Positions 1 through 43,943 of a stretch of DNA of 64,000 nt are shown here, in pieces (within the stretch, counting starts at the first letter, position 1; each line of letters begins with the position of its first letter). The stretch is from positions 1,408,001 to 1,472,000 of the forward strand of contig OZ241981.1 in assembly GCA_965204345.1 (NCBI GenBank), given 5' to 3'. The position numbers and the translations under genes were made by a program. Under the pieces are notes generated by a model. The model saw only the letters and a list, made by a program, of their open reading frames with translations, was not told the origin of the DNA and searched no databases. The DNA comes from Nitrosopumilus sp. Its GTDB lineage: Archaea; Thermoproteota; Nitrososphaeria; Nitrososphaerales; Nitrosopumilaceae.

Positions 1-296
1 AAAGAAACGATCTAACGGCTTTTAGTGAAATACTTAGAAAAGGATGGGATGAAAAAAAGAAATTCGCACGCCAGATTACAGATAAGTCAATTGATGATGT
101 GGTTAAACGTGCAACGACCCTAGGAGTTCAAGGAATGAAAATTACGGGGGCAGGTGGGGGCGGGCACATCTTTGCATATGCAGATTCAGGCAAACATAAA
201 AAAATTATCTCCAATCTAGAAAAAATAGGTATAAAACATATACCATTTCATTATACATTCTCTGGAACAGTTGCTTTTAATACAAGTTTTTTATAG
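1..296 (+). CDS. hddA: GHMP-family sugar kinase (D-glycero-alpha-D-manno-heptose-7-phosphate kinase-like), 3' part; runs off window start
   Basis: Identical to the 3' end of 2878..3894 (GMKITGAGGGG motif); offset 3598 bp. Confidence 0.8.
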   Translation, partial: RNDLTAFSEILRKGWDEKKKFARQITDKSIDDVVKRATTLGVQGMKITGAGGGGHIFAYADSGKHKKIISNLEKIGIKHIPFHYTFSGTVAFNTSFL

Positions 297-317
297 ATTT
301 TTTTGGTGAGGTAAGAT

Positions 318-905
318 ATGAATGACATCGTAAAGGATTATTTAATTCATCAAGAAGAATGTCTTGAAAAAATAAAGACAGATTTTTTTTCAGACAAAAT
401 TAAGAAAATTTTTGGGATTTTGATTAACGCACGTGATAATGGCAATCGCGTGTTTGTTATGGGCAATGGCGGAAGTGCATCTACAGCATCTCACTTTGTT
501 GCGGATTTATTAAAAACAAGTATTGTGAAAAATTCGAAAAGATTTCAAGCGTTATCTTTGTCAGATAATATTCCAGTCATGTTGGCATGGGCAAATGATT
601 TTTCTTACGATGACATATTTGTAGGACAGTTAGAAAATTTCTTGGAGGAAAAAGACATAGTGGTTGGAATTAGCAGCAGTGGAAATTCAAACAACGTAAT
701 CAGAGCAGCCAAATATGCAAACGACAAAGGTGCGCACTGTATTGCATTGACAGGCAAAGATGGAGGCAAATTATCAAATATATCTGCCACAAATTTAACA
801 GTTCCAAGTAATGACATTCTAACTATCGAGACTATGCATTTGATGACATGTCATTTATTAATCGCAATGATTAGAGAATCAGGTACGCCTTTCTACAAAT
901 ATTAA
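318..905 (+). CDS. gmhA: Phosphoheptose isomerase (SIS domain)
   Basis: GNGGSASTASHF, ANDFSYDDIF..QL, ISSSGNS.N, ETMHL motifs. Confidence 0.9.
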   Translation: MNDIVKDYLIHQEECLEKIKTDFFSDKIKKIFGILINARDNGNRVFVMGNGGSASTASHFVADLLKTSIVKNSKRFQALSLSDNIPVMLAWANDFSYDDIFVGQLENFLEEKDIVVGISSSGNSNNVIRAAKYANDKGAHCIALTGKDGGKLSNISATNLTVPSNDILTIETMHLMTCHLLIAMIRESGTPFYKY

Positions 906-906
906 A

Positions 907-1395
907 TTGCAAAAGAAAGCCATATTTTTAGATAGGGACGGAGTCATTAACCAAAACAGAAAAGACTACGTCAAAGAGTTATCAGAATTTGAAATATTTG
1001 ACTGGGTAGGAGAATCAGTCAAACTGTTCAAGGATGCAGGATATTTGGTGATAATAATAACAAATCAATCAGCTATAGGAAGGAGATTACTCACACATGA
1101 AGAATTAAAAAAAATACATGATTGCCTTGAGAACTATCTTAAAACATTCAAGACAAAGATTGATGCAATATATTATTGCCCACATACGCCAGAAGACAAT
1201 TGTGATTGTAGAAAACCCAAGCCCGGGTTGTTGCTTGCTGCAATACAGGATTTTCAAGTTGATTTGTCAAACAGTTGGATGGTAGGAGATTCGACTGCAG
1301 ATATCATGGCCGCAACGTCAGCTGGATGCAGATCATACATGATAAAAGAGAATTTAACATTGCTTGATATTGCAATACATATATGTAAAGGATAA
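907..1395 (+). CDS. gmhB: Heptose-1,7-bisphosphate phosphatase (HAD)
   Basis: FLDRDGVIN, TNQS, CPH..C.CRKPKPG, MVGD motifs. Confidence 0.9.
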   Translation: MQKKAIFLDRDGVINQNRKDYVKELSEFEIFDWVGESVKLFKDAGYLVIIITNQSAIGRRLLTHEELKKIHDCLENYLKTFKTKIDAIYYCPHTPEDNCDCRKPKPGLLLAAIQDFQVDLSNSWMVGDSTADIMAATSAGCRSYMIKENLTLLDIAIHICKG

Positions 1396-1638
1396 GATTT
1401 TGAATTGTGGTTAATTAAGGACATCGTCAGACATGCAGTTACGGATAGATAAAGAGAGGAAGAAGTAAGGAGCGAGTAAATAAATCAATAAATAACGGAT
1501 TGATTGATTGTGTAAATTAATTTCCTTTATTTCAGATAAGATGGGATTATAAATTCTGGCTATAAATTAGACATCAAGTATCATCAACATATAAATTATT
1601 TTTTGTCTTTTGATTTTTTGTTCTTCTTCTTGTTCTTT

Positions 1639-2769
1639 TGTATTATATGAAAATCATATCCGCTAGTCATTCATGTCTGCCTCCATCCATTTTTGGTTGC
1701 TTTTTCTGATCGCATCAGGAACCTTTTTGGCCTTAAATGCCATCAGAGGCACCTGGCAGTTCTCTATGTCCAGAGAAAAATGCAGTCTATCCTTATTGTA
1801 AAAATCGATGAACTCCCCCATCGTCTTAAAGTGTACAATCTCATCCTCAAGTGTCCTGAAGAATCTCTCAATCTTGCCGTTGGCCTGCGGGTGGTGGTGG
1901 TGGTGGTGGTGGTGGGAGCGTGAGTCAATCAGGGCAATACTCCTCTCCAGAGCTTCTTCCTCAAACATGGTGAGCCTCTATCCCTTGGCAGGTATACCGC
2001 GGTTTCGGGATGTGAACTGGGCGCCGTTGTCTGAAAGTATCTGGCCTGGCGTGCCAAATGACTTGATAGTCTTGCGCAAAACGGCTACAGTGTTCTGGCT
2101 TGTGGCACTATCAAATATCCCGAATCCCGTTATGCATCTTGATGCATCATCCAGATATGCCACAAGTTGCAATCCTTTTAGGCGTGGATCCTTCATTTTG
2201 GCCAGTCCATATCCCACATTGCATTGGAATACAGTCACTCGTATCTGACGTACTTTCTCTTCTTGGATTTTTCAGGAGACAGCTTAACTAGTCCATTGGA
2301 TTTCATTATTTGGTAATGCTGTATGGTATCTTATATGAGATGACTTTCTGAGGTGGCGAGCTGTGTGCACTACTGCATGAATATCATCATATGTCTTAAG
2401 AACACGACGTTTAAGTGGTGACGGCATCGTCTAGGGCTTCGAGCCTGCATGAATATCATCATATGTCTTAAGAACACGACGTACATCCTCAGGTGATGGT
2501 ATCTTTCTGGGTCTTTCTGCCTTTCTGTGGGGGAGTATTCTTCCGGTCTTGCGGTAGGCTGCCCATATGCGTCTGACGTGTCTTGCGCTGACCTGCATGG
2601 TCTGGGCCAGAACAGATGCTGCACCTGTGCCCTTTTGATGCTGCCGTATGATGTATCTAATCTGAACTTCTTTTAGTCTGGTTCTCTTCATTATTCGTGA
2701 TCTGTATATGCGGTAATAATCCCTTGCCTGAAGCCTGAGCTTAGGCGGACATAATTTTCGTACAATAGA
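1639..2769 (-). mobile_element. IS481-family element copy 1, degraded (frameshifts, in-frame TAG, 72-bp insertion)
   Basis: HTH N-terminus, DDASR, ILSDNGAQF and HPQ.NGKIERF rve-integrase motifs in split ORFs; 25-bp imperfect IRs TGTATTATATGAAAATCATATCCGC / TCTATTGTACGAAAATTATGTCCGC. Confidence 0.9.
2373..2482. repeat. 38-bp direct repeat pair enclosing a 34-bp unique insert (inside IS copy 1; again at 5971..6080)
   Basis: CTGCATGAATATCATCATATGTCTTAAGAACACGACGT at 2373-2410 and 2445-2482; single copy and no insert in IS copies 3 and 4. Confidence 0.9.
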
Positions 2770-2847
2770 TTTGCGAAACCAGATGAAAGACTAAAAACGT
2801 TAAAACTGGATGATGATGATCCTGCTCATGCAAGAGATGTTAATTAA
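2770..2847 (+). pseudogene. 3' remnant of a gene truncated by the IS end
   Basis: Open frame FAKPDERLKTLKLDDDDPAHARDVN* starts immediately at the IS terminus, with no start codon. Confidence 0.5.
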
Positions 2848-2877
2848 TATGAAGTATTTTCAGCAGTACTAACACAC

Positions 2878-3894
2878 ATGATTGTTGGTAGATCACCACT
2901 AAGAATCAGTTTTGCAGGGGGAGGAACTGATCTTGAAGAATATTACAAAAGATATACAGGTCATACCATTAGTTTCACAATCAGCAAAAATACACATGTC
3001 GTCATACAAAAAAGAGAGGATGAAAAATTCCAGGGATTTTCTCCAGATTTTCAAACGCATCATCCCCCAGAAAAATATTCAAAAGTAAGGAAAAATCTTC
3101 AGGGTCATGAAATAATCATAGCAGTTTTAAAGGAATTAAACGTTACAAAAGGAATAAACGCATTTTTTTGCAGTGATGTAAACGCGGGTTCAGGGCTAGG
3201 TGCATCATCATCACTTGCAACAAATTTAGTTAATACCGTACTTTTTATGGAAGAGCAAAAATGGACAAAAAAGAGAATTGCAGAGAAGGCATATGAGATA
3301 GCACATAATGTTTTAAAATGGAACTTGGGAAAACAAGATGAGTTTTCTTCATCTTATGGTGGATTGAATCTCTTTGAATTTACTAAAGATAATGTCAAGA
3401 CTGAAAGACTTTTGTTGAACAAATCTACCTTCAGAGAGATTCAAGATAATTCGTTGTTGTTTTCATTAGAAAGAAAGCGACAGCCCTCTAGCACGATCTT
3501 AAAAGACCAAGCAGAAAAAACTAAGAAGAATGATCCCCGTACAATAAATGCCCTGCACAATACAAATCAATTTGCTTTAGAATTGCGGGACTGCTTAAAA
3601 AGAAACGATCTAACGGCTTTTAGTGAAATACTTAGAAAAGGATGGGATGAAAAAAAGAAATTCGCACGCCAGATTACAGATAAGTCAATTGATGATGTGG
3701 TTAAACGTGCAACGACCCTAGGAGTTCAAGGAATGAAAATTACGGGGGCAGGTGGGGGCGGGCACATCTTTGCATATGCAGATTCAGGCAAACATAAAAA
3801 AATTATCTCCAATCTAGAAAAAATAGGTATAAAACATATACCATTTCATTATACATTCTCTGGAACAGTTGCTTTTAATACAAGTTTTTTATAG
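2878..3894 (+). CDS. hddA: D-glycero-alpha-D-manno-heptose-7-phosphate kinase-like GHMP kinase
   Basis: RSPLRISFAGGGTD, GSGLGASS, GKQD, GAGGGG motifs; adjacent to gmhA/gmhB. Confidence 0.85.
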   Translation: MIVGRSPLRISFAGGGTDLEEYYKRYTGHTISFTISKNTHVVIQKREDEKFQGFSPDFQTHHPPEKYSKVRKNLQGHEIIIAVLKELNVTKGINAFFCSDVNAGSGLGASSSLATNLVNTVLFMEEQKWTKKRIAEKAYEIAHNVLKWNLGKQDEFSSSYGGLNLFEFTKDNVKTERLLLNKSTFREIQDNSLLFSLERKRQPSSTILKDQAEKTKKNDPRTINALHNTNQFALELRDCLKRNDLTAFSEILRKGWDEKKKFARQITDKSIDDVVKRATTLGVQGMKITGAGGGGHIFAYADSGKHKKIISNLEKIGIKHIPFHYTFSGTVAFNTSFL

Positions 3895-3915
3895 ATTTTT
3901 TTGGTGAGGTAAGAT

Positions 3916-4503
3916 ATGAATGACATCGTAAAGGATTATTTAATTCATCAAGAAGAATGTCTTGAAAAAATAAAGACAGATTTTTTTTCAGACAAAATTA
4001 AGAAAATTTTTGGGATTTTGATTAACGCACGTGATAATGGCAATCGCGTGTTTGTTATGGGCAATGGCGGAAGTGCATCTACAGCATCTCACTTTGTTGC
4101 GGATTTATTAAAAACAAGTATTGTGAAAAATTCGAAAAGATTTCAAGCGTTATCTTTGTCAGATAATATTCCAGTCATGTTGGCATGGGCAAATGATTTT
4201 TCTTACGATGACATATTTGTAGGACAGTTAGAAAATTTCTTGGAGGAAAAAGACATAGTGGTTGGAATTAGCAGCAGTGGAAATTCAAACAACGTAATCA
4301 GAGCAGCCAAATATGCAAACGACAAAGGTGCGCACTGTATTGCATTGACAGGCAAAGATGGAGGCAAATTATCAAATATATCTGCCACAAATTTAACAGT
4401 TCCAAGTAATGACATTCTAACTATCGAGACTATGCATTTGATGACATGTCATTTATTAATCGCAATGATTAGAGAATCAGGTACGCCTTTCTACAAATAT
4501 TAA
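3916..4503 (+). CDS. gmhA: Phosphoheptose isomerase (second copy)
   Basis: Identical to 318..905. Confidence 0.9.
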   Translation: MNDIVKDYLIHQEECLEKIKTDFFSDKIKKIFGILINARDNGNRVFVMGNGGSASTASHFVADLLKTSIVKNSKRFQALSLSDNIPVMLAWANDFSYDDIFVGQLENFLEEKDIVVGISSSGNSNNVIRAAKYANDKGAHCIALTGKDGGKLSNISATNLTVPSNDILTIETMHLMTCHLLIAMIRESGTPFYKY

Positions 4504-4504
4504 A

Positions 4505-4993
4505 TTGCAAAAGAAAGCCATATTTTTAGATAGGGACGGAGTCATTAACCAAAACAGAAAAGACTACGTCAAAGAGTTATCAGAATTTGAAATATTTGAC
4601 TGGGTAGGAGAATCAGTCAAACTGTTCAAGGATGCAGGATATTTGGTGATAATAATAACAAATCAATCAGCTATAGGAAGGAGATTACTCACACATGAAG
4701 AATTAAAAAAAATACATGATTGCCTTGAGAACTATCTTAAAACATTCAAGACAAAGATTGATGCAATATATTATTGCCCACATACGCCAGAAGACAATTG
4801 TGATTGTAGAAAACCCAAGCCCGGGTTGTTGCTTGCTGCAATACAGGATTTTCAAGTTGATTTGTCAAACAGTTGGATGGTAGGAGATTCGACTGCAGAT
4901 ATCATGGCCGCAACGTCAGCTGGATGCAGATCATACATGATAAAAGAGAATTTAACATTGCTTGATATTGCAATACATATATGTAAAGGATAA
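4505..4993 (+). CDS. gmhB: Heptose bisphosphate phosphatase (second copy)
   Basis: Identical to 907..1395. Confidence 0.9.
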   Translation: MQKKAIFLDRDGVINQNRKDYVKELSEFEIFDWVGESVKLFKDAGYLVIIITNQSAIGRRLLTHEELKKIHDCLENYLKTFKTKIDAIYYCPHTPEDNCDCRKPKPGLLLAAIQDFQVDLSNSWMVGDSTADIMAATSAGCRSYMIKENLTLLDIAIHICKG

Positions 4994-5236
4994 GATTTTG
5001 AATTGTGGTTAATTAAGGACATCGTCAGACATGCAGTTACGGATAGATAAAGAGAGGAAGAAGTAAGGAGCGAGTAAATAAATCAATAAATAACGGATTG
5101 ATTGATTGTGTAAATTAATTTCCTTTATTTCAGATAAGATGGGATTATAAATTCTGGCTATAAATTAGACATCAAGTATCATCAACATATAAATTATTTT
5201 TTGTCTTTTGATTTTTTGTTCTTCTTCTTGTTCTTT

Positions 5237-6367
5237 TGTATTATATGAAAATCATATCCGCTAGTCATTCATGTCTGCCTCCATCCATTTTTGGTTGCTT
5301 TTTCTGATCGCATCAGGAACCTTTTTGGCCTTAAATGCCATCAGAGGCACCTGGCAGTTCTCTATGTCCAGAGAAAAATGCAGTCTATCCTTATTGTAAA
5401 AATCGATGAACTCCCCCATCGTCTTAAAGTGTACAATCTCATCCTCAAGTGTCCTGAAGAATCTCTCAATCTTGCCGTTGGCCTGCGGGTGGTGGTGGTG
5501 GTGGTGGTGGTGGGAGCGTGAGTCAATCAGGGCAATACTCCTCTCCAGAGCTTCTTCCTCAAACATGGTGAGCCTCTATCCCTTGGCAGGTATACCGCGG
5601 TTTCGGGATGTGAACTGGGCGCCGTTGTCTGAAAGTATCTGGCCTGGCGTGCCAAATGACTTGATAGTCTTGCGCAAAACGGCTACAGTGTTCTGGCTTG
5701 TGGCACTATCAAATATCCCGAATCCCGTTATGCATCTTGATGCATCATCCAGATATGCCACAAGTTGCAATCCTTTTAGGCGTGGATCCTTCATTTTGGC
5801 CAGTCCATATCCCACATTGCATTGGAATACAGTCACTCGTATCTGACGTACTTTCTCTTCTTGGATTTTTCAGGAGACAGCTTAACTAGTCCATTGGATT
5901 TCATTATTTGGTAATGCTGTATGGTATCTTATATGAGATGACTTTCTGAGGTGGCGAGCTGTGTGCACTACTGCATGAATATCATCATATGTCTTAAGAA
6001 CACGACGTTTAAGTGGTGACGGCATCGTCTAGGGCTTCGAGCCTGCATGAATATCATCATATGTCTTAAGAACACGACGTACATCCTCAGGTGATGGTAT
6101 CTTTCTGGGTCTTTCTGCCTTTCTGTGGGGGAGTATTCTTCCGGTCTTGCGGTAGGCTGCCCATATGCGTCTGACGTGTCTTGCGCTGACCTGCATGGTC
6201 TGGGCCAGAACAGATGCTGCACCTGTGCCCTTTTGATGCTGCCGTATGATGTATCTAATCTGAACTTCTTTTAGTCTGGTTCTCTTCATTATTCGTGATC
6301 TGTATATGCGGTAATAATCCCTTGCCTGAAGCCTGAGCTTAGGCGGACATAATTTTCGTACAATAGA
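5237..6367 (-). mobile_element. IS481-family element copy 2 (identical to copy 1), degraded
   Basis: Same split ORFs and IRs; flanked by a near-duplicated TTTGTTCTT(CTTCTT)GTTCTTT. Confidence 0.9.
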
Positions 6368-6458
6368 TTTGTTCTTGTTCTTTAAGAAAATTTAAAAGAG
6401 AAATAAATTGTATGTCTGTAACTTATAATAACAGGTATTTGTTGTGAGGCATATAAGC

Positions 6459-7700
6459 ATGAATGTTTTAATCATAGCACAATATTTCCCACCAGACGTA
6501 GGTGGTGGAATAACTAGAATAAGCAATGCAGCTAAGGCATTAAAGAACCAAGGCAACAACGTAACTGTCGTATCTGCGTTTCCACACTATCCAAAGGGAG
6601 ACATTCCAAAAAAATACAGAGGTAAGATAATTGCAAAAGAACAGATTGACGGCATAACAATATACAGAACATGTATTCCCAAATTATCTCATTCGTCTAT
6701 TTTAAAACGCATAATAATTCATCTTTCATTTTGTCTCTCATCACTGTTGGTAATGCAGAAATTTCGCGATACTGACATAATTTTTGCATCAAACCCGAGC
6801 TTTTTTGTTTCATTTCCTGCTGCTGTGTACAGTTTTTTTCTGAAAAAAAAATATATTCTTAATGTCGATGACATGTGGCCAGAAGTATGGTATGACTTGG
6901 GATATGTCAAGTCGAGGATCTTCAGAAAGATTTTAGACCATATTGCCCAAAAATCATATGACAATTCGTGTGCAGTGGTGCCACTAAGTAGGGGTTATGT
7001 AGACGTATTGGAGTCAAAATATAAGGTCAAAAGAGAAAAAATTACAGTTATTGAGCATGGCGTAGATACGGAAAAATTCAGGACTAATGAAAACAAAAGG
7101 GATGAGCAACACCAAGACGGACCAAGTGGAAGGAAAAAAATTCTAATGTATGCCGGCGCACTAGGTATCGGATATGATTTTGATACAATACTGCAGGCTG
7201 CCAAGATTTTAGAGCAGTATCCGATACAGTTCATAATCAGGGGTGAGGGAAACCTGGAGGATTATCTAAAACAGCAGGTTCAGCAGCAGAAAATTACAAA
7301 TGTCAAAATAGATACAAAATTTGTCGAATTTGAAAAATATAACGAGATACTAAACAGCGCGGATATTTTTTTATTGCCCCTAAGTCCGGTCAGGGGATTT
7401 GACTATGGATTGATTACAAAGACACTGGACTATCAAATGATTGGAAGGCCAATCTTTTGTATCTCAAAGGGGGAATCAAAACGCTATGTAAATGAGACAA
7501 AAAGTGGCATTGTAACATCATCAAGGGATCCCAAGACTGTTTCGGATTTGATTTTGAAATTGGTAAAAGACGAGAAGCTTGCAGAGGAATTGGGTCAAAA
7601 CGGAAGAAGGTACGTTCTAGAGAACCTGACAATAGAGATGATTGGCAAGCGATTGATGAAGGTGATAAACGGCTGTATGGAGGAGGAGGAAAAAAAATAA
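6459..7700 (+). CDS. Glycosyltransferase family 4 (GT-B, WcaI/WbuB-like)
   Basis: MNVLIIAQYFPPD..GG, PHYPKG, YAG.LG..YDF, ADIFLLP; ATG at 6459 aligns with the paralog start. Confidence 0.9.
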   Translation: MNVLIIAQYFPPDVGGGITRISNAAKALKNQGNNVTVVSAFPHYPKGDIPKKYRGKIIAKEQIDGITIYRTCIPKLSHSSILKRIIIHLSFCLSSLLVMQKFRDTDIIFASNPSFFVSFPAAVYSFFLKKKYILNVDDMWPEVWYDLGYVKSRIFRKILDHIAQKSYDNSCAVVPLSRGYVDVLESKYKVKREKITVIEHGVDTEKFRTNENKRDEQHQDGPSGRKKILMYAGALGIGYDFDTILQAAKILEQYPIQFIIRGEGNLEDYLKQQVQQQKITNVKIDTKFVEFEKYNEILNSADIFLLPLSPVRGFDYGLITKTLDYQMIGRPIFCISKGESKRYVNETKSGIVTSSRDPKTVSDLILKLVKDEKLAEELGQNGRRYVLENLTIEMIGKRLMKVINGCMEEEEKK

Positions 7701-8982: not shown

Positions 8983-9527
<545 letters not shown>

Positions 9528-9573
9528 TATGGCAGGACTGGAGAGACAGTCATTACATTATAATTAAATAATT

Positions 9574-11733
9574 TTGTATTTCTCTAAATTTAAGATGCTT
9601 TCAGCCGGCTTTTTTCTACGAATACCTTCCTCGTCGTCATCCCCATCCTCACGTTTTCAAGGTGTCTGTAACGAATTTTTGCTAACATATTTCCTGTTTT
9701 CGGCATACGCATTACTTTACATGGTCCTGACTGCAACCATATTAAAGATAAAAATTTTTCCAACCATCGACAGAATAACATACGTGGATGCAGTAGTCAG
9801 ATGGACGATAACTGATTCGCTGCAATACGACATGCTGTTTGCATCCATAATTTTTGCAACGGCATTGCTCTTGTCGTTTAGAAAAAAGATATCAGTTTCT
9901 TTCTCAGTCATGCTACTGGTACCGGTCATCTCTGCGTCGTTTTTTGATTTTTTTCTCGAAGTTTCTCAAATGGTTTTCATCTTCTCAATGCCGACAGCAC
10001 TCACATTATTCTTGGTTGGTTATTACTTGTCTAACTACAGCCAGAAAAAGAAGAAGAAGAGCTCATCTAGCTTGGAGAAACCAGAAGAGGTGGCAACGGG
10101 TCACAGCTTCAGGCATGCGTTGTCTGTATTTTTTTCAGTTATTCTACTAGTTGAATTGGCAGCGGCACTCAGATGGGTTCTAACGCCTGTGGTTTTGGAA
10201 TTGCCCAAAAACCACTGGAGTTGGAACATAGTGTCTTTGGAAAACAGCGTGTTTTATGTTCTGGGCCTGATGGTTCCGTCCATCTTTTTGCTTTGCATCC
10301 TGTCTTTTTTGATAAAACCGTTTGTACAAAAAATATATTCAGGCATCAGCAGCGGCGGCGGCAACAACGGCAAAGACGGCAGCGGCACTACCACTGACAC
10401 TGCCATCACGCAGCAGCAGCAGCCTCAAAGACGACGACATTCAGATGATCTTGATGGCAAAAGCCCAACTGCAAACGGCCAAAAATCATTGAAAATAACA
10501 AATTTAAAAAAATACAGCCCCGTCATCTTGCTCTCAAAAATTGATTTTGATGGCAGTACGCGAAACGTTGCCTTGATGTTGTTGCTGGCAATGATATCGT
10601 CAGTTTTGATATCATTGTTTCCATACGCAGTATCCATAGTAGATGCGGACAAGTCATTTGGCACTGACGTCAAAAACTACACTGGCTGGCTTTGGCCGAT
10701 TAATTCGGCTGCCGGCCTTGAGAGCATGCTCCGTCTGGCATTCTTTGAAATAAACGAGGGTTCCAGACCCCTGACGCTGCTTTCAATATATTTTATCTCC
10801 CATATCTCCCAGTACGAGCAGGAGATTGTTTTAAAATATTTGCCAACAGTGCTGGGTCCGCTACTAGTAGCATCCACATATTTCTTTACGAGGGCTGCCT
10901 ATCCTCAGAACAGGAAGATTGCAGTGATCACATCGGTGATCACGTCAGTATCACCGCAGATAGTAATCGGGTTTTATGCGGCATTTTACGCAAATTGGTT
11001 TGCCTTGATTTTTATTTTAATCTCCTCAACGTTTCTAATCAAGTGCGTACGAAGGCAGGATCATCATCATCATCATCACGATTTTAGAAACATGACACTG
11101 TTTGGCGGCACCCTGCTGTTGGTGTTATTTTTTCATTCGTATGCATGGAGTTATTTTATGGCAACAGTTATGCTATACCTCATATGGTCACTGGCAATAA
11201 AAAAACGCAGAAAAGAGTCGGCAAAAATTTGTATCATTTTGGTGGCAGTGACATTATCCATACTTTCAGTGGATCTGTCCAGATCATATTTTGGAAACAC
11301 ATCAGATAGTTTTGAGAAAGACTTGCTGATAGCAGATTCGTCAATTAGTTATTACGAGTTTGTAAACAGATGGGCCAACTTTAATAACACTTTTTTTGTC
11401 TTTCTTGGGGGGTTTCTGACAAATTTTATGCTGCTAGGCCTGCTATTTGTATGGACCCTGCAAACAAAGCACTCGAGTCATTCAGACAGATTCTTCCTTT
11501 CGATGTTGCTGGTATCAGTGCTGCCAATCTTATTTGGGGATTTCAACGTACAGTCCAGAATATTTTACAACATTCCGTTCCACATTCCTGCAAGCGTTAT
11601 GTTGTACAAAATATACCAGAGCAACCAGACAAGGCCATTTGGCAAAATACTGGTCGTTGTGACAATATTGTTTCAGTTCAACTATGCATTAAGGGGGATG
11701 TCAAACATGAATTTTGCATCACCGATACAATGA
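9574..11733 (+). CDS. Multi-pass membrane protein, putative GT-C-fold glycosyltransferase
   Basis: Many hydrophobic segments, G.D..Y loop motif, glycosylation context; exact start uncertain. Confidence 0.6.
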   Translation: MYFSKFKMLSAGFFLRIPSSSSSPSSRFQGVCNEFLLTYFLFSAYALLYMVLTATILKIKIFPTIDRITYVDAVVRWTITDSLQYDMLFASIIFATALLLSFRKKISVSFSVMLLVPVISASFFDFFLEVSQMVFIFSMPTALTLFLVGYYLSNYSQKKKKKSSSSLEKPEEVATGHSFRHALSVFFSVILLVELAAALRWVLTPVVLELPKNHWSWNIVSLENSVFYVLGLMVPSIFLLCILSFLIKPFVQKIYSGISSGGGNNGKDGSGTTTDTAITQQQQPQRRRHSDDLDGKSPTANGQKSLKITNLKKYSPVILLSKIDFDGSTRNVALMLLLAMISSVLISLFPYAVSIVDADKSFGTDVKNYTGWLWPINSAAGLESMLRLAFFEINEGSRPLTLLSIYFISHISQYEQEIVLKYLPTVLGPLLVASTYFFTRAAYPQNRKIAVITSVITSVSPQIVIGFYAAFYANWFALIFILISSTFLIKCVRRQDHHHHHHDFRNMTLFGGTLLLVLFFHSYAWSYFMATVMLYLIWSLAIKKRRKESAKICIILVAVTLSILSVDLSRSYFGNTSDSFEKDLLIADSSISYYEFVNRWANFNNTFFVFLGGFLTNFMLLGLLFVWTLQTKHSSHSDRFFLSMLLVSVLPILFGDFNVQSRIFYNIPFHIPASVMLYKIYQSNQTRPFGKILVVVTILFQFNYALRGMSNMNFASPIQ

Positions 11734-11812
11734 AAACCCCATGATGCAACCAGAATTATACCAGCCTCTATTTTGTCAAACATGAATTTTGCATCACCGA
11801 TACAATGAAAAC
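11699..11812. repeat. 39-bp perfect direct repeat pair enclosing a 36-bp unique insert (mirror copy at 16895..17008)
   Basis: TGTCAAACATGAATTTTGCATCACCGATACAATGAAAAC at 11699-11737 and 11774-11812. Confidence 0.9.
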
Positions 11813-11931
11813 GGCAGGACACGGGAAGAAGGCTAAAAAGACTTAAAAATGAAAAACAGGCTACGGTACTTGCTTGACAAAGTCTCAAATATCTGTCTGT
11901 TGTTGCAAAATCCTGACATCTGTGTAATGCC

Positions 11932-13005
11932 ATGGCTAAAAAAAAATCCGCCCTAATAACTGGGATAACGGGTCAGGATGGCGCCTATTTGGCAAGGTTT
12001 CTCTTGAATAAAAATTATGACGTGTACGGAACATTCAGGCGCCTCTCCACGCCGAATTTTTGGAGGCTCATATCACTGGGCATTGATGAGAGCATCAATT
12101 ATATTCCGGCAGACCTTGTGGATGTCTCATCATTAACAGAGTCGCTGAAAATTTCAAACCCCGATGAAGTGTATCATCTGGCCGCCCAAAGTTATGTAGG
12201 ATCCTCATTTGATCAGCCAATAACAAGTGGGGAATACTCTGGTTTGGCAGTTGCAAGAATCTTGGAAAGCGTGAGGAGGGCAGCAGACAAAAAGAAGATC
12301 AAGTTTTATCAAGCCTCCTCAAGTGAGCTGTATGGCAGGGTTGAGGAATCCCCCCAAAATGAGGACACCCCGTTTAGACCACAGAGTCCGTACGCCGCAG
12401 CAAAGCTGTACGGTTACTGGATAACAAAAATGTACCGTGACGGCTATGACATGTTTGCCTCAAATGGAATACTGTTTAATCACGAATCCCCGTTGAGGGG
12501 ACTGGAGTTTGTCACAAGAAAGATTACAAATGCCGTTGCAAAAATCAAGCTGGGATTGCAGAAGAGACTGGTACTTGGAAACCTGGATGCATCAAGGGAT
12601 TGGGGATATGCGCCTGAATACGTCGAATGCATGTGGAGAATAATGCAGCAAAAAAATCCGGATGACTATGTCATTTCTACCAATGAGGCCCATACGGTAA
12701 GAGAGTTTGTGGAGCTGGCCTTCTCACATGTTGATTTGAAATGGGAAAAATACGTAAAATCAGATGATCGGTTTTATAGGATTCTTGAGGTAGATACGCT
12801 AAGGGGGGATTCATCCAAAGCCAAGAGGGAGCTTAGGTGGAGGCCAAAAACCAGGTTTGAGGATTTGGTTAAAATCATGGTAAATGCGGACATTCAGAGA
12901 TGGGAACGCTGGCAGAAAGGCAAGACATTTTCATGGGATGCAATTAATTATATCGACGAAAAGAAGACGCTTTTTAGGACAAGAAAGACAAGCGTGCATT
13001 CGTAA
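11932..13005 (+). CDS. gmd: GDP-mannose 4,6-dehydratase
   Basis: ALITGITGQDGAYL, HLAAQS, YQASSSELYG, SPYAAAKLY, FNHESPLRG, RDWGYA. Confidence 0.93.
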   Translation: MAKKKSALITGITGQDGAYLARFLLNKNYDVYGTFRRLSTPNFWRLISLGIDESINYIPADLVDVSSLTESLKISNPDEVYHLAAQSYVGSSFDQPITSGEYSGLAVARILESVRRAADKKKIKFYQASSSELYGRVEESPQNEDTPFRPQSPYAAAKLYGYWITKMYRDGYDMFASNGILFNHESPLRGLEFVTRKITNAVAKIKLGLQKRLVLGNLDASRDWGYAPEYVECMWRIMQQKNPDDYVISTNEAHTVREFVELAFSHVDLKWEKYVKSDDRFYRILEVDTLRGDSSKAKRELRWRPKTRFEDLVKIMVNADIQRWERWQKGKTFSWDAINYIDEKKTLFRTRKTSVHS

Positions 13006-13194
13006 ATAGGTTGTCCGGCATGTAATGCCGTATGTCAGTCAGGCAATCAGCCGGCATGCATGCATGCATATAGCAGCCGGCTGGCACAGACATACTTGTG
13101 CAAATAATATCCAAGTCAGCCAGCAAGTCAGTGTGTATATATATCATACCTGTCCAAATAACATGCAAGTCAGTCATCATTCTCTTAGTGCTCC

Positions 13195-14172
13195 TCAAGA
13201 CAAGTCTGGGTTAAGAATCCTTTTCTTCTCAATGCTCTTGGTCTTGTCTTGTGGATTATTAAGATACCAAGCAATCAGCTCTTTTAATCCCTCTTCAAAC
13301 TTTATTTGGGGTTTCCAGCCAAACTCGTTTTTAGCTTTAGATATGTCCAACAAGCGTCTTGGTTGACCGTTAGGATGATTGACATCAAAGAGTATTTCCA
13401 AATCCAAATCCATGAGTTTCATTAGTATTTTTGTAAGTTCTAGTATTGTGATTTCATATCCCCCACCAATATTCACAGGGGATGGGTCATTGTAAGATTC
13501 TGAGGCCATTATAATGGCTTGTGCTGCATCAGTTATGTGAAGAAAATCTCGTGAAGCAGAACCGTCACCGAAAAGTGTGATGCTTGGATAATTGTTAATT
13601 TTTGCTTCATGCAGTTTCACAATCAATGCAGGAATTACATGGGACATTTCTGGTGAAAAATTATCTTTGATTCCATACAAATTACTCAATATTATATTAA
13701 TTGCGGTAAAATTGAACTGTGCGGCATATGCATCGGATTGAACAATCAGCATTTTTTTTGCCAGTCCATAGTGGGAATTTGTCTCCTCAGGATAGCCATC
13801 CCAAATATCTTTCTCTAAGGAAGGGAGATGAGTATATTTTGGATAGCTGCACACGGTTCCGATTGAAATGAATTTTTTAACATTTGCCTTTCGTGCTTCC
13901 TCCATCAAATGAGCTCCCATTATTAGGTTGTCATAGAAAACCGAGCCAGGATATTTGGCTGTAAAGCCAATTCCTCCAATAAGTCCGGCAGCATGAAAAA
14001 CAATATCAACGTCTTGTACAATCCTAGCACAGTTTGACTTTTCACGTAAATCGCATTCTTTGGATGTTGGAGTAATTATTTTGTTGGGTTTTTTTTCTTT
14101 TAAGAGAGAGACAATATTTGAACCTAAGAAGCCGTTGGCACCTGTAACTAAGACATTCAATTTATCCCACAT
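13195..14172 (-). CDS. fcl: GDP-L-fucose synthase-like epimerase/reductase
   Basis: VTGANGFLG, GTVCSYPK, YGLAKK, NLYG..DNF, SHVIPALI, GQPRRLLD. Confidence 0.88.
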   Translation of the reverse strand: MWDKLNVLVTGANGFLGSNIVSLLKEKKPNKIITPTSKECDLREKSNCARIVQDVDIVFHAAGLIGGIGFTAKYPGSVFYDNLIMGAHLMEEARKANVKKFISIGTVCSYPKYTHLPSLEKDIWDGYPEETNSHYGLAKKMLIVQSDAYAAQFNFTAINIILSNLYGIKDNFSPEMSHVIPALIVKLHEAKINNYPSITLFGDGSASRDFLHITDAAQAIIMASESYNDPSPVNIGGGYEITILELTKILMKLMDLDLEILFDVNHPNGQPRRLLDISKAKNEFGWKPQIKFEEGLKELIAWYLNNPQDKTKSIEKKRILNPDLS

Positions 14173-14219: not shown

Positions 14220-15254
14220 TCTATTGTACGAAAATTATGTCCGCCTAAGCTCAGGCTTCAGACAAGGGATTATTACCGCATATACCGATCACGAATAATG
14301 AAGAGAACCAGACTAAAAGGAGATCAGATTAGATACATCATACGGCAGCATCAAAAGGGCACAGCTGCAGCAGTCTGGCCCAGACCATGCAGGTCAGCGC
14401 AAGACACGTCAGACGCATATGGGCAGCCTACCGCAAGACCGGAAGAATACTCCCCCACAGAAAGGCAGAAAGACCCAGAAAGATACCATCACCTGAGGAT
14501 GTACGTCATGTTCTTAAGACATATGATGATATTCATGCAGTAGTAGTGCGCACGACTCGCCACCTCAGAAAGTCATCTCATATAAGCTACCATACGGTAT
14601 ACCAAATAATGAAATCCAACGGACTGGCCAGACTGTCTCCTGAAAAATCCAAGAAGAGGAAATACGTCAGATACGAGCGACTGTATTCCAATGCAATGTG
14701 GCATGTGGACTGGCCAAAATGAAGGATCCACGCCTGAAAGGACTGCAACTTGTGGCATATCTGGATGATGCATCAAGATGCATAACGGGATTCGAGATAT
14801 TTGAGTGCCACAAGCCAGAACACTGTAGCCGTTTTGCGCAAGGCTATCAAGTCATTTGGCACGCCAGGTCAGATACTTTCAGACAATGGAGCCCAGTTCA
14901 CATCCCGGAACCGCGGTGTACCTGCCAAGGGATGGAAGCCCACCCTGTTTGAGGAGGAAGCTCTAGAGAGGGGTATTGCCCTGATTAACTCGCGCCCCCA
15001 CCACCCGCAGACCAACGGCAAGATTGAAAGATTCTTCAAGACACTTAAGGATGAGATTGTACACTTAAGACAGTAGGGGAGTTCATCGATTTTTACAATG
15101 AGGATAGGTTGCATTTTTCTCTGGACATAGAGAACTGTCAGGTGCCCCTGATGGCATTTAAGGCCAAAAAGGTTCCTGATGCGATCAGGAAAAACAACCA
15201 AAAATGGATGGAGGTGGACATAAATGACTAGCGGACATATTATCATATAATACA
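14220..15254 (+). mobile_element. IS481-family element copy 3, frameshifted
   Basis: Split transposase ORFs 14298-15076 and onward; IRs TCTATTGTACG... and ...ATATAATACA. Confidence 0.9.
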
Positions 15255-15512
15255 ATCACAATACTAGAACTTACAAAAATACTAATGAAACTCATGGATT
15301 TGGATTTGGAAATACTCTTTGATGTCAATCATCCTAACGGTCAACCAAGACGCTTGTTGGACATATCTAAAGCTAAAAACGAGTTTGGCTGGAAACCCCA
15401 AATAAAGTTTGAAGAGGGATTAAAAGAGCTGATTGCTTGGTATCTTAATAATCCACAAGACAAGACCAAGAGCATTGAGAAGAAAAGGATTCTTAACCCA
15501 GACTTGTCTTGA
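15255..15512 (+). pseudogene. fcl: 3' fragment of fcl at the start of the right inverted arm
   Basis: Reverse complement of 13195-13452, beginning exactly at the IS end. Confidence 0.9.
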
Positions 15513-15701
15513 GGAGCACTAAGAGAATGATGACTGACTTGCATGTTATTTGGACAGGTATGATATATATACACACTGACTTGCTGGCTGACTTGGATAT
15601 TATTTGCACAAGTATGTCTGTGCCAGCCGGCTGCTATATGCATGCATGCATGCCGGCTGATTGCCTGACTGACATACGGCATTACATGCCGGACAACCTA
15701 T

Positions 15702-16775
15702 TTACGAATGCACGCTTGTCTTTCTTGTCCTAAAAAGCGTCTTCTTTTCGTCGATATAATTAATTGCATCCCATGAAAATGTCTTGCCTTTCTGCCAGCG
15801 TTCCCATCTCTGAATGTCCGCATTTACCATGATTTTAACCAAATCCTCAAACCTGGTTTTTGGCCTCCACCTAAGCTCCCTCTTGGCTTTGGATGAATCC
15901 CCCCTTAGCGTATCTACCTCAAGAATCCTATAAAACCGATCATCTGATTTTACGTATTTTTCCCATTTCAAATCAACATGTGAGAAGGCCAGCTCCACAA
16001 ACTCTCTTACCGTATGGGCCTCATTGGTAGAAATGACATAGTCATCCGGATTTTTTTGCTGCATTATTCTCCACATGCATTCGACGTATTCAGGCGCATA
16101 TCCCCAATCCCTTGATGCATCCAGGTTTCCAAGTACCAGTCTCTTCTGCAATCCCAGCTTGATTTTTGCAACGGCATTTGTAATCTTTCTTGTGACAAAC
16201 TCCAGTCCCCTCAACGGGGATTCGTGATTAAACAGTATTCCATTTGAGGCAAACATGTCATAGCCGTCACGGTACATTTTTGTTATCCAGTAACCGTACA
16301 GCTTTGCTGCGGCGTACGGACTCTGTGGTCTAAACGGGGTGTCCTCATTTTGGGGGGATTCCTCAACCCTGCCATACAGCTCACTTGAGGAGGCTTGATA
16401 AAACTTGATCTTCTTTTTGTCTGCTGCCCTCCTCACGCTTTCCAAGATTCTTGCAACTGCCAAACCAGAGTATTCCCCACTTGTTATTGGCTGATCAAAT
16501 GAGGATCCTACATAACTTTGGGCGGCCAGATGATACACTTCATCGGGGTTTGAAATTTTCAGCGACTCTGTTAATGATGAGACATCCACAAGGTCTGCCG
16601 GAATATAATTGATGCTCTCATCAATGCCCAGTGATATGAGCCTCCAAAAATTCGGCGTGGAGAGGCGCCTGAATGTTCCGTACACGTCATAATTTTTATT
16701 CAAGAGAAACCTTGCCAAATAGGCGCCATCCTGACCCGTTATCCCAGTTATTAGGGCGGATTTTTTTTTAGCCAT
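15702..16775 (-). CDS. gmd: GDP-mannose 4,6-dehydratase (inverted copy)
   Basis: Identical protein to 11932..13005. Confidence 0.93.
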   Translation of the reverse strand: MAKKKSALITGITGQDGAYLARFLLNKNYDVYGTFRRLSTPNFWRLISLGIDESINYIPADLVDVSSLTESLKISNPDEVYHLAAQSYVGSSFDQPITSGEYSGLAVARILESVRRAADKKKIKFYQASSSELYGRVEESPQNEDTPFRPQSPYAAAKLYGYWITKMYRDGYDMFASNGILFNHESPLRGLEFVTRKITNAVAKIKLGLQKRLVLGNLDASRDWGYAPEYVECMWRIMQQKNPDDYVISTNEAHTVREFVELAFSHVDLKWEKYVKSDDRFYRILEVDTLRGDSSKAKRELRWRPKTRFEDLVKIMVNADIQRWERWQKGKTFSWDAINYIDEKKTLFRTRKTSVHS

Positions 16776-16973
16776 GGCATTACACAGATGTCAGGATTTT
16801 GCAACAACAGACAGATATTTGAGACTTTGTCAAGCAAGTACCGTAGCCTGTTTTTCATTTTTAAGTCTTTTTAGCCTTCTTCCCGTGTCCTGCCGTTTTC
16901 ATTGTATCGGTGATGCAAAATTCATGTTTGACAAAATAGAGGCTGGTATAATTCTGGTTGCATCATGGGGTTT

Positions 16974-19133
16974 TCATTGTATCGGTGATGCAAAATTCAT
17001 GTTTGACATCCCCCTTAATGCATAGTTGAACTGAAACAATATTGTCACAACGACCAGTATTTTGCCAAATGGCCTTGTCTGGTTGCTCTGGTATATTTTG
17101 TACAACATAACGCTTGCAGGAATGTGGAACGGAATGTTGTAAAATATTCTGGACTGTACGTTGAAATCCCCAAATAAGATTGGCAGCACTGATACCAGCA
17201 ACATCGAAAGGAAGAATCTGTCTGAATGACTCGAGTGCTTTGTTTGCAGGGTCCATACAAATAGCAGGCCTAGCAGCATAAAATTTGTCAGAAACCCCCC
17301 AAGAAAGACAAAAAAAGTGTTATTAAAGTTGGCCCATCTGTTTACAAACTCGTAATAACTAATTGACGAATCTGCTATCAGCAAGTCTTTCTCAAAACTA
17401 TCTGATGTGTTTCCAAAATATGATCTGGACAGATCCACTGAAAGTATGGATAATGTCACTGCCACCAAAATGATACAAATTTTTGCCGACTCTTTTCTGC
17501 GTTTTTTTATTGCCAGTGACCATATGAGGTATAGCATAACTGTTGCCATAAAATAACTCCATGCATACGAATGAAAAAATAACACCAACAGCAGGGTGCC
17601 GCCAAACAGTGTCATGTTTCTAAAATCGTGATGATGATGATGATGATCCTGCCTTCGTACGCACTTGATTAGAAACGTTGAGGAGATTAAAATAAAAATC
17701 AAGGCAAACCAATTTGCGTAAAATGCCGCATAAAACCCGATTACTATCTGCGGTGATACTGACGTGATCACCGATGTGATCACTGCAATCTTCCTGTTCT
17801 GAGGATAGGCAGCCCTCGTAAAGAAATATGTGGATGCTACTAGTAGCGGACCCAGCACTGTTGGCAAATATTTTAAAACAATCTCCTGCTCGTACTGGGA
17901 GATATGGGAGATAAAATATATTGAAAGCAGCGTCAGGGGTCTGGAACCCTCGTTTATTTCAAAGAATGCCAGACGGAGCATGCTCTCAAGGCCGGCAGCC
18001 GAATTAATCGGCCAAAGCCAGCCAGTGTAGTTTTTGACGTCAGTGCCAAATGACTTGTCCGCATCTACTATGGATACTGCGTATGGAAACAATGATATCA
18101 AAACTGACGATATCATTGCCAGCAACAACATCAAGGCAACGTTTCGCGTACTGCCATCAAAATCAATTTTTGAGAGCAAGATGACGGGGCTGTATTTTTT
18201 TAAATTTGTTATTTTCAATGATTTTTGGCCGTTTGCAGTTGGGCTTTTGCCATCAAGATCATCTGAATGTCGTCGTCTTTGAGGCTGCTGCTGCTGCGTG
18301 ATGGCAGTGTCAGTGGTAGTGCCGCTGCCGTCTTTGCCGTTGTTGCCGCCGCCGCTGCTGATGCCTGAATATATTTTTTGTACAAACGGTTTTATCAAAA
18401 AAGACAGGATGCAAAGCAAAAAGATGGACGGAACCATCAGGCCCAGAACATAAAACACGCTGTTTTCCAAAGACACTATGTTCCAACTCCAGTGGTTTTT
18501 GGGCAATTCCAAAACCACAGGCGTTAGAACCCATCTGAGTGCCGCTGCCAATTCAACTAGTAGAATAACTGAAAAAAATACAGACAACGCATGCCTGAAG
18601 CTGTGACCCGTTGCCACCTCTTCTGGTTTCTCCAAGCTAGATGAGCTCTTCTTCTTCTTTTTCTGGCTGTAGTTAGACAAGTAATAACCAACCAAGAATA
18701 ATGTGAGTGCTGTCGGCATTGAGAAGATGAAAACCATTTGAGAAACTTCGAGAAAAAAATCAAAAAACGACGCAGAGATGACCGGTACCAGTAGCATGAC
18801 TGAGAAAGAAACTGATATCTTTTTTCTAAACGACAAGAGCAATGCCGTTGCAAAAATTATGGATGCAAACAGCATGTCGTATTGCAGCGAATCAGTTATC
18901 GTCCATCTGACTACTGCATCCACGTATGTTATTCTGTCGATGGTTGGAAAAATTTTTATCTTTAATATGGTTGCAGTCAGGACCATGTAAAGTAATGCGT
19001 ATGCCGAAAACAGGAAATATGTTAGCAAAAATTCGTTACAGACACCTTGAAAACGTGAGGATGGGGATGACGACGAGGAAGGTATTCGTAGAAAAAAGCC
19101 GGCTGAAAGCATCTTAAATTTAGAGAAATACAA
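16974..19133 (-). CDS. Multi-pass membrane protein, putative GT-C fold (inverted copy)
   Basis: Identical protein to 9574..11733. Confidence 0.6.
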   Translation of the reverse strand: MYFSKFKMLSAGFFLRIPSSSSSPSSRFQGVCNEFLLTYFLFSAYALLYMVLTATILKIKIFPTIDRITYVDAVVRWTITDSLQYDMLFASIIFATALLLSFRKKISVSFSVMLLVPVISASFFDFFLEVSQMVFIFSMPTALTLFLVGYYLSNYSQKKKKKSSSSLEKPEEVATGHSFRHALSVFFSVILLVELAAALRWVLTPVVLELPKNHWSWNIVSLENSVFYVLGLMVPSIFLLCILSFLIKPFVQKIYSGISSGGGNNGKDGSGTTTDTAITQQQQPQRRRHSDDLDGKSPTANGQKSLKITNLKKYSPVILLSKIDFDGSTRNVALMLLLAMISSVLISLFPYAVSIVDADKSFGTDVKNYTGWLWPINSAAGLESMLRLAFFEINEGSRPLTLLSIYFISHISQYEQEIVLKYLPTVLGPLLVASTYFFTRAAYPQNRKIAVITSVITSVSPQIVIGFYAAFYANWFALIFILISSTFLIKCVRRQDHHHHHHDFRNMTLFGGTLLLVLFFHSYAWSYFMATVMLYLIWSLAIKKRRKESAKICIILVAVTLSILSVDLSRSYFGNTSDSFEKDLLIADSSISYYEFVNRWANFNNTFFVFLGGFLTNFMLLGLLFVWTLQTKHSSHSDRFFLSMLLVSVLPILFGDFNVQSRIFYNIPFHIPASVMLYKIYQSNQTRPFGKILVVVTILFQFNYALRGMSNMNFASPIQ

Positions 19134-19179
19134 AATTATTTAATTATAATGTAATGACTGTCTCTCCAGTCCTGCCATA

Positions 19180-24165
<4,986 letters not shown>

Positions 24166-24240
24166 GTCTAGATGATGGTTATATGCGTATTTTTTTTGTT
24201 TATCTTTGATCATGCCCATGACTGTATTTTTTTTACCTGT

Positions 24241-24300
24241 TTTGTGCAAAAATCATGTCTCCCAGTCTGTTTTGTGCAAAAATCATATCTCCCAGTCTAT
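24241..24300. repeat. 30-bp tandem duplication spanning the sulfotransferase stop
   Basis: TTTGTGCAAAAATCAT(G/A)TCTCCCAGTCT(G/A)T twice; single copy in the left arm. Confidence 0.85.
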
Positions 24301-32074: not shown

Positions 32075-33116
32075 TGTATTATATGAAAATCATATCCGCT
32101 AGTCATTCATGTCTGCCTCCATCCATTTTTGGTTGCTTTTTCTGATCGCATCAGGAACCTTTTTGGCCTTAAATGCCATCAGAGGCACCTGGCAGTTCTC
32201 TATGTCCAGAGAAAAATGCAGCCTATCCTCATTGTAAAAGTCGATGAATTTCCCTACCGTCTTAAAGTGTACAAGCTCATCCTCAAGTGTCCTAAAGAAT
32301 CTCTCAATCTTGCCGTTGGCCTGCGGGTGGTGGGAGCGTGAGTCAATCAGGGCAATACTCCTCTCCAGAGCTTCTTCCTCAAACATGGTGAGCCTCTATC
32401 CCTTGGCAGGTACACCGCGGTTTCTGGATGTGAACTGGGCTCCATTGTCTGAAAGTATTTGACCTGGCGTGCCAAATGACTTGATAGCCTTGCGCAAAAC
32501 GGCTACAGTGTTCTGGCTTGTGGCACTATCAAATATCTCGAATCCCGTTATGCATCTGGGATGCATCATCCAGATATGCCACAAGTTGCAGTCCTTTCAG
32601 GCGTGGATCCTTCATTTCGTGCCAGTCCACATGCCACATTGCATTGGAATACAGTCGCTCATATCTGACGTACTTTCTCTTCTTGGATTTTTCAGGAGAC
32701 AGTCTGGCCAGTCCGTTGGATTTCATTATTTGGTATACCGTATGGTAGCTTATATGAGATGACTTTCTGAGGTGGCGAGTCGTGCGTACTACTCCTGCAT
32801 GAATATCATCATATGTCTTAAGAACACGACGTACATCCTCAGATGATATTGTCTTTCTGGGTCTTCCTGGCTTTCTGTGGGAGTTTATTGTTCCGGTCTT
32901 GCGGTAGGCTGCCCATATGCGTCTGACGTGCCTTGCGCTGACCTGCATGGTTTGGGCCAGAACAGATGCAGCTGTGCCCTTTTGACGCTGACGTATGATG
33001 TATCTGGTCTGATCCTCCTTTAGTCTGATTCTCTTCATTATTCGTGATCGGTATATGCGGTAATAATCCCTTGCCTGAAGCCTGAGCTTAGGCGGACATA
33101 ATTTTCGTACAATAGA
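32075..33116 (-). mobile_element. IS481-family element copy 4, frameshifted with in-frame TAG
   Basis: Split ORFs 32529-33038, 32396-32584 and 32099-32386; same IRs. Confidence 0.9.
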
Positions 33117-43908: not shown

Positions 43909-43943
43909 TCTTAGTTTATTTGTAATAAATTATTTTTTAAGCT

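Follow-up and report, generated by a model that had tools for sequence, protein, structure and literature searches.

Spacer integration outside a CRISPR array has been described in Escherichia coli that overproduces Cas1-Cas2, where non-canonical integration gives "neo-CRISPR" units; papers that cite this work report that it adds "circumstantial evidence" for two other species (Nivala, Shipman and Church 2018, Nat Microbiol). Off-target integration is, indeed, mostly known from over-expression and from test tubes, and its natural frequency and cost are largely undescribed. Here, the subject is a small structure, called scar 3, at positions 11699-11812 of a stretch of 64,000 nucleotides (the window) from the chromosome of a Nitrosopumilus, an ammonia-oxidising archaeon, found in sponge metagenomes. 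The window (C1:1408001-1472000) belongs to an assembly of 2.12 Mb with a completeness of 99.7%, and an archaeal amoA gene in this genome agrees with its placement in Nitrosopumilus. Scar 3 is very probably the product of off-target spacer integration by Cas1-Cas2, now carried as a neutral scar, and it belongs to a family of such scars.

Other described systems bear on it. In an in vitro assay with Cas1-Cas2 from Pyrococcus furiosus, the off-target sites share features of the repeat, and Cas1 and Cas2 suffice for full-site integration (PMC6698737). In the type I-B system of Haloarcula hispanica, the size of the duplication is set by the integrase together with motifs of the repeat (PMC4872114). 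Mini-CRISPR arrays and solitary repeat units, known from viruses and from cas loci, consist of genuine CRISPR repeats and are thought to be functional (PMC6858448, PMC8616872). Casposon integration, in turn, is the work of a Cas1-family integrase that makes a target duplication (PMC5137440). The literature searched, including passages on sponge Thaumarchaeota, holds no description of such scars in Nitrosopumilus, which is of course not proof of absence.

Structure of scar 3

Scar 3 is 114 bases long. It is built from a perfect direct repeat of 39 nucleotides (nt), TGTCAAAC...ATGAAAAC, with copies at 11699-11737 and 11774-11812 (both plus strand) that lie 75 nt apart from start to start. Between them stands an insert of exactly 36 nt (11738-11773, plus strand), read here as an integrated spacer. 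One border is ambiguous, as the T at 11774 fits either the insert or the repeat. The match to a candidate donor, presented below, includes this T and thus points to a spacer of 37 nt and a duplication of 38 nt. Half-site refinement agrees with the donor match, placing a 38-nt duplication (11700-11737 and 11775-11812) around a 37-nt insert (11738-11774).

The first copy, 39 nt as an exact repeat and most likely 38 nt as a target, holds the final 11 codons and the TGA (11731-11733) of an open reading frame (ORF) of 719 amino acids (9574-11733, plus strand). Because the end of the ORF falls within this first copy, its protein is unaltered by the insertion. The entire scar recurs on the minus strand at 16895-17008, with repeats at 16895-16933 and 16970-17008 and the insert at 16934-16969. 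This mirror exists because scar 3 lies inside an inverted repeat of 4104 nt, whose left arm (9350-13453) is 100% complementary to its partner at 15254-19357. The inverted duplication postdates the integration. The original prediction, made from the letters of the window, had already described the perfect 39-bp repeat around a 36-bp insert, the TGA of the 719-amino-acid gene within it, and the mirror, and it was right in all of these.

A family of scars on one chromosome

The chromosome was searched for non-tandem repeat pairs in which at least 28 of 30 positions match, at spacings of 40-200 nt. The census returned 474 raw pairs, 58 of them isolated. Spacings of 69-76 nt account for 32 of the 58, with a mode at 72 nt (14 pairs). 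Six of the 32 were collapsed as copies made by segmental duplication, and two adjacent scars lost to the isolation filter (C1:486267 and C1:486375) were restored, to give 28 unique repeat-insert-repeat scars in the genome with periods of 69-76 nt. When the same thresholds and spacings were applied to three block-shuffled copies of the chromosome, each yielded zero pairs (0, 0, 0). This excludes a chance origin of the repeat pairs.

The dimensions are narrow. Among the 20 scars with perfect repeats of at least 33 nt, median lengths are 37.5 nt for the exact repeat and 35 nt for the insert. Over the approximately 28 sites, the inserts measure 30-38 nt and are mutually unrelated in sequence.

The window itself holds a sister of scar 3, called scar 1/2, at 2373-2482 and again at 5971-6080 (plus strand), with a 38-nt repeat, a 34-nt insert and a period of 72 nt. 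Its surroundings form a unit of 3598 bp that stands in three perfect tandem copies (window 1-7200 plus upstream sequence from C1:1406775), each with the same scar of 72-nt period. Elsewhere on the chromosome, at C1:486267-486486, a pair of independent scars is separated by 2 nt; in the second, the duplicated sequence consists of the final 23 nt of a tRNA-Ser(CGA) gene and 15 nt of flank. At scar 3 and at the tRNA-Ser scar alike, the gene survives because the scar duplicates the gene's end.

Other scars lie in the interior of genes. Five are spanned by an open frame of at least 300 amino acids (C1:162808, 499885, 754448, 1400070 and 1546947, in frames of 313-1125 amino acids), and all five have a period divisible by three, so that they would add 23-25 residues. 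Twelve scars have a period that is not a multiple of three, and none of the twelve is spanned by any frame of 100 amino acids. This pattern shows selection against scars that break a frame.

Empty sites and the donors of the inserts

If the repeats are duplicated targets, then sites that never received an insert should hold the target once. For scar 1/2, paralogous empty sites are found at ~32794-32832 and ~14503-14540 (reverse strand), both in diverged loci, where the 38-nt target is single and has no insert. A copy of the 3598-bp unit, 91-98% identical and without the scar, lies at ~32075-33117.

For scar 3, the empty site comes from public sequencing runs. Those that contain the stretch are sponge and marine metagenomes, and all sampled words of the stretch were found in runs of several studies. 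Contigs from four public runs were aligned to the stretch around scar 3. Run X10 carries the filled form, with the insert as a unitig of its own that bridges both repeat copies. In run X11, a contig of 2508 nt covers 11429-11698 and 11774-12200 with 0 mismatches and skips exactly 75 nt, and the insert is uncovered by any X11 contig. This contig is read, on contig evidence, as the empty allele of scar 3. Run X12, in turn, holds a contig of 1055 nt in which 11738-11774 (37 nt, 1 mismatch) stands between unrelated flanks; its depth is 9.4, against 2.9 for the host contigs, or about three times as much. It is read as the donor or as a close relative of the donor. The RNA contigs of run X13 leave scar 3 uncovered. 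Within the genome, the sole other copy of the scar 3 insert is the one in the mirror.

Several sister scars have donors on their own chromosome. In the search for donors, 36 inserts were set against the genome; once duplicates are discounted these come to 29, namely the inserts of the 28 scars and of one unit within the CRISPR array. Six of the 29 match distant chromosomal sites over 33-37 nt at 94-100% identity, and the matches end at the insert borders or a few bases from them. A seventh match (31 nt, 90%, expect value (E) 0.057) was left out of the count. Fragments of the chromosome, of the length of a spacer, held between duplicated copies of a target are the type of product made by Cas1-Cas2, and thus point to spacer integration.

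Wider searches returned little. No orthologous empty site was found at the DNA level in 40 relatives, where only the downstream gene was matched, in G015. A scan of metagenome contigs with 24 nt of the scar 3 repeat had 0 matches, as had a scan of IMG/VR with the scar 1 insert. Against a phage collection, the scar 3 insert gave just two matches of 24 nt (E 0.9), taken as chance. A 60-nt probe containing the insert, run against 300 genomes of the family, gave matches of 21-28 nt in 10 genomes (E 2.5e-4 to 6e-3). These are read as chance matches and not as donors, because the four aligned loci represent three unrelated contexts that have little in common beyond ACCAGCCTCTATTTTGTC.

The CRISPR locus of the host

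The genome has a single match to Cas1. It lies within a cas1-cas2-cas4 block that adjoins an array of six repeats (C1:1886281-1886667) with periods of 68-72 nt. The leader-proximal unit of this array (C1:1886549-1886660) is off register, consisting of a 40-nt duplication (13 nt of spacer and 27 nt of repeat) around an insert of 32 nt. Its spacer is self-derived, being 100% identical to C1:1209414-1209450.

The cas1 gene has itself been hit. A scar of 72-nt period within it (C1:1888130-1888245) brings in-frame TAA stops and splits the gene into ORFs of 167 and 151 amino acids (the longest open stretches are 184 and 154). Deleting 72 nt in silico restores an open frame of 337 amino acids.

Little is left of the interference machinery. 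Pfam models for Cas6, RAMP, DevR/Cas7 and Cas5 (PF01881, PF03787, PF01905 and PF09704) have no match in the genome. The Cas proteins of G053, a relative discussed below, were also compared with the genome by tblastn and match cas1, cas2 and cas4 and, for cas6, residues 92-214 only; cas5, cas7 and cas8 were not found in the genome by this search. The sole tblastn match for cas3 is weak (23.6% identity, E 8e-5), lies at a great distance from the cas locus and is taken to be an unrelated helicase. The cas6 remnant (C1:1884292-1884660) lies on the strand opposite to cas1-cas2-cas4, beside a tyrosine-integrase ORF of 563 amino acids (C1:1882556-1884247). The effector genes may have been lost through rearrangement or through the insertion of an element. 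To judge from its gene content, the module is a decayed type I-B system without interference, and because it lacks interference, self-derived spacers would be tolerated.

Relatives with more complete systems

The same-genus genomes whose Cas1 is most similar are G053, G280 and G320, and the host's two Cas1 fragments share 63% and 61% identity with the G053 protein. In all three relatives, a related repeat of 36 nt forms long arrays; their periods are 69-75 nt in both G053 and G320, and 69-80 nt (mostly 70-72) in G280. By the sizes of their duplications, inserts and periods, the scars thus agree with this lineage's CRISPR in repeat length, spacer length and period.

G053 has an intact type I-B-like system, with cas8-like, cas7, cas5, cas3, cas6, cas1, cas2 and cas4 genes all present and an array of more than 60 repeats. 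The same census script, run on all 1.70 Mb of G053, gives 21 isolated pairs, eight of them at 66-73 nt. With one low-complexity coding repeat removed, seven scars remain (C1:43914, 61656, 381767, 879346, 1174536, 1536512 and 1589657 of that genome). Two of the seven inserts have perfect donors in the G053 genome. More broadly, Cas1 matches occur in 104 of 301 genomes of the family, a tally that includes the unpublished genomes G243, G293, G294, G132 and G117, which bear on nothing else reported here.

The ends of the targets

An earlier score of the two target ends, in which shifts were allowed freely, had been weakly significant (P about 0.004). The later set is limited to scars whose repeats are perfect, 20 of the 28 in this genome and 5 of the 7 in G053; these 25 scars give 50 half-sites, read inward from the flank without shifting. 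The remaining scars were dropped beforehand, as their borders are uncertain. Among the 50 half-sites, a G stands at position -3 in 28 (P 1e-8), a C at -2 in 23 (2e-5), a T at +2 in 29 (6e-5) and an A at +6 in 33 (2.5e-7). The consensus is symmetric, with RCT outside the border and (G/C)TnAnAA inside it.

This arrangement is familiar from the arrays. All four of the leaders examined carry GGCT or GACT immediately 5' of the first repeat, and the CRISPR repeats start CTGAATAG (the host's own), CAATTAAT or GTTCAAAG, with GTTTCAAT on the other strand. As far as these sequences indicate, the motif at the scar ends mimics the leader-repeat junction, and the likeness is confined to the termini. Such two-fold symmetry of the motif, at a fixed distance, accords with an integrase that is itself two-fold symmetric and carries its own ruler.

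In scar 3, the left half-site (11696-11707, plus strand) has GAT outside and GTCAAAC inside the border and matches the consensus. The right half-site (11805-11816, minus strand), read on the bottom strand, has GCC outside and GTTTTCAT inside, and resembles the host repeat end GTTTCAAT. In CRISPR RNA (crRNA) orientation, the host repeat ends GATTGAAAC, to which the end of the scar 3 repeat, AATGAAAAC, is close. In G053, the scar at 43914 has a target that ends GGATTGAAAC, with 22 of 36 positions matching the repeat.

Weighing the interpretation

Several observations weigh against off-target integration as the origin of scar 3. Over their full length, the scar repeats resemble the host CRISPR repeat no more than random genomic sequence does: they match it at 14.7 of 34 positions on average, where the null gives 15.0 (P 0.86). 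Scar 3, with 14 of 34, is at the null level, and none of the 28 scars exceeds the 95th percentile of the null. The duplication in scar 3 is 38-39 nt, against 36 nt for the repeat of the genus. No shared protospacer-adjacent motif is apparent by eye beside the six chromosomal donors. The empty site and the donor of scar 3 rest on contigs assembled from k-mers and not on raw reads, and an assembler could collapse a 39-nt repeat; X11, moreover, is from the same study as some of the possible source samples. That donor could be a virus, a plasmid or another strain. The comparison with G078, of the same genus and without a Cas1 match, speaks for the reading but covers half of one genome: its first 800,000 of 1,612,089 bases hold six isolated pairs, none of them at 60-85 nt. 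Finally, because cas1 is now broken, present-day activity cannot be shown.

What these loci show is the geometry, the scar family, donors and an empty site, a motif at the ends and a decayed set of cas genes; that Cas1-Cas2 carried out the catalysis is our inference. An integrase or transposase of another kind (a casposase-like Cas1, say, or some other staggered cutter) might also insert short fragments with a duplication of ~37 nt. It would find room in the indirect nature of the case for Cas1-Cas2 and in the Cas1 homologues, some of them probably casposases, among the 104 of 301 family genomes. However, the sole Cas1 match in this genome adjoins cas2, cas4 and an array; the duplication and insert sizes track those of CRISPR repeats and spacers; and the motif at the scar ends matches that of the leader-repeat junction. 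A casposon is a large element that has terminal inverted repeats and a polymerase gene and makes duplications of ~14-15 bp; none of these hallmarks was seen here. A different enzyme is therefore an unlikely author of the scars. Copying of a short patch, with duplication of its flank, by template-switching in replication or by microhomology-mediated repair would be a quite improbable source. Microhomology of 4-5 nt does occur at the target ends for two donors (those of the in-array unit C1:1886549 and of the scar at C1:1947301), but it is absent at most donors, and such copying leaves unexplained the fixed period of ~72 nt, the symmetric end motif and the absence of scars from the 800 kb of G078.

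The original prediction had named, as what would speak against it, an insert that is the remnant of a larger integrated element. The 39-nt repeat would then be its att site, and direct repeats that contain the 3' end of a gene do resemble attL and attR; in one sister scar, the gene whose 3' end is overlapped codes for tRNA-Ser. Of such an element, however, there is no sign. The empty site differs by exactly 75 nt, the insert is just 36 nt, and the ~28 sites all have inserts of 30-38 nt, unrelated in sequence, several of which are exact short copies of the chromosome. This makes a remnant highly improbable. Perfect repeats of several kb abound in the region and could invite misassembly, but an artefact is scarcely credible when all sampled words of the stretch recur in runs of several studies and the insert unitig of X10 bridges both repeat copies.

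Off-target integration, which the original prediction had proposed, gains support from the geometry, the scar family, the donor, the empty site and the shared terminal motif; the putative donor is the X12 contig, which carries the 37-nt insert with 1 mismatch in an unrelated context. The CRISPR-like ends that it saw in the repeat survive in part: the termini are alike (host GATTGAAAC, scar 3 AATGAAAAC), whereas over the full length the likeness is at the null level given above. Its suggestion of a mini pre-crRNA, produced by read-through transcription, finds no support, as no Cas5, Cas7, Cas8 or RAMP genes were found, cas6 is a C-terminal fragment and cas1 is split. A functional mini-array was likewise considered and set aside, since the scar 3 repeats are not the host CRISPR repeat and no working Cas6 or effector was found. 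That no such Cas6 or effector was found, and that a sister scar splits cas1, makes it most likely that scar 3 serves no function today.

A proposed course of events

Scar 3 very probably arose as follows. The adaptation module of the host, Cas1-Cas2(-Cas4) derived from a type I-B system, would have captured a DNA fragment of 37 nt that is absent from this genome. Two staggered strand-transfer attacks, ~38 nt apart, would then have joined it to the chromosome at ends that resemble the leader-repeat junction and the repeat termini, and repair of the gaps would have duplicated the 38-nt target on either side of the insert. The target spans the final codons and the stop of the 719-amino-acid gene; copy 1 would have preserved the gene, and the event would have been neutral. 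The 4.1-kb inverted duplication would later have copied the scar.

A broader hypothesis, to which we would give a little less than an even chance, is that the adaptation module of this lineage acts as a standing insertional mutagen, weakly guided by sequence. It would scatter spacers even while interference is intact (the seven scars of G053). After the loss of the effector it would scatter more of them, leaving 28 scars, self-derived spacers and in-frame additions to five long ORFs, and it would finally have inactivated itself through a spacer in its own cas1. If this is true, the scars are a natural, datable record of the target choice of an integrase, and raw material for new CRISPR arrays.

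Surroundings of scar 3 in the window

The 719-amino-acid ORF has hydrophobic stretches and is called a membrane protein by eye only; it has no Pfam match. Downstream of scar 3 lies a GDP-mannose 4,6-dehydratase gene (11932-13005, plus strand), and the gap between it and the 719-amino-acid ORF grew by 75 nt through the scar.

The arms of the 4104-nt inverted repeat enclose a centre of 1800 nt. This centre (~14220-15238) is a diverged (~92-99%) inverted copy of parts of the unit found at 1639-2769, 5237-6367 and 32075-33117. An ORF of 1689 amino acids (19180-24249, minus strand) contains five perfect tandem repeats of 495 nt. Tandem arrays (57-nt and 150-nt) lie elsewhere in the window (48755-49795 and 63085-63822); all of these are highly repetitive coding regions.

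Significance and comparison with known systems

In this genome, ~28 events have become fixed in nature, and with them come donors, an empty allele that persists in the population, a symmetric motif and a cas1 gene destroyed by one of the scars. Three things thereby become measurable from sequence: the fidelity of a CRISPR integrase, the mutational load that it imposes, and the origin of new arrays that has been proposed for stray integrations. Isolated arrays that arise by stray integration were reportedly discussed by Shmakov et al. in 2020. The scars also carry a warning for annotation, as isolated repeat-spacer-repeat units of ~72 nt inside genes may be neither CRISPR arrays nor mobile elements.

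Mini-arrays and scar 3 both hold one spacer between two repeats; the repeats of the scars, however, are ordinary host sequence. With casposons, the scars would have in common a target duplication made by a Cas1-family integrase, whereas the large element with a short duplication was not found here. The H. hispanica system, with its integrase ruler, is also of type I-B; the scars, which have no mid-repeat motifs, vary over 33-42 nt around the norm of 36 nt. The P. furiosus work used a plasmid assay in vitro, whereas the scars are fixed genomic events, and their likeness to the repeat is limited to the termini and a leader-like RCT flank.

The closest relatives of scar 3 are the neo-CRISPR units of Nivala and colleagues (2018), in which Cas1-Cas2 leaves a spacer-sized insert between duplicated, repeat-sized genomic sequence that is not CRISPR. 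Unlike the E. coli units, the scars arose in nature and in an archaeon; a single chromosome holds 28 unique ones, and there is an empty site that is polymorphic. They also lie inside genes, cas1 included, beside an adaptation module that has no effector. Scar 3 is a known kind of event, preserved in an unusually rich natural record.

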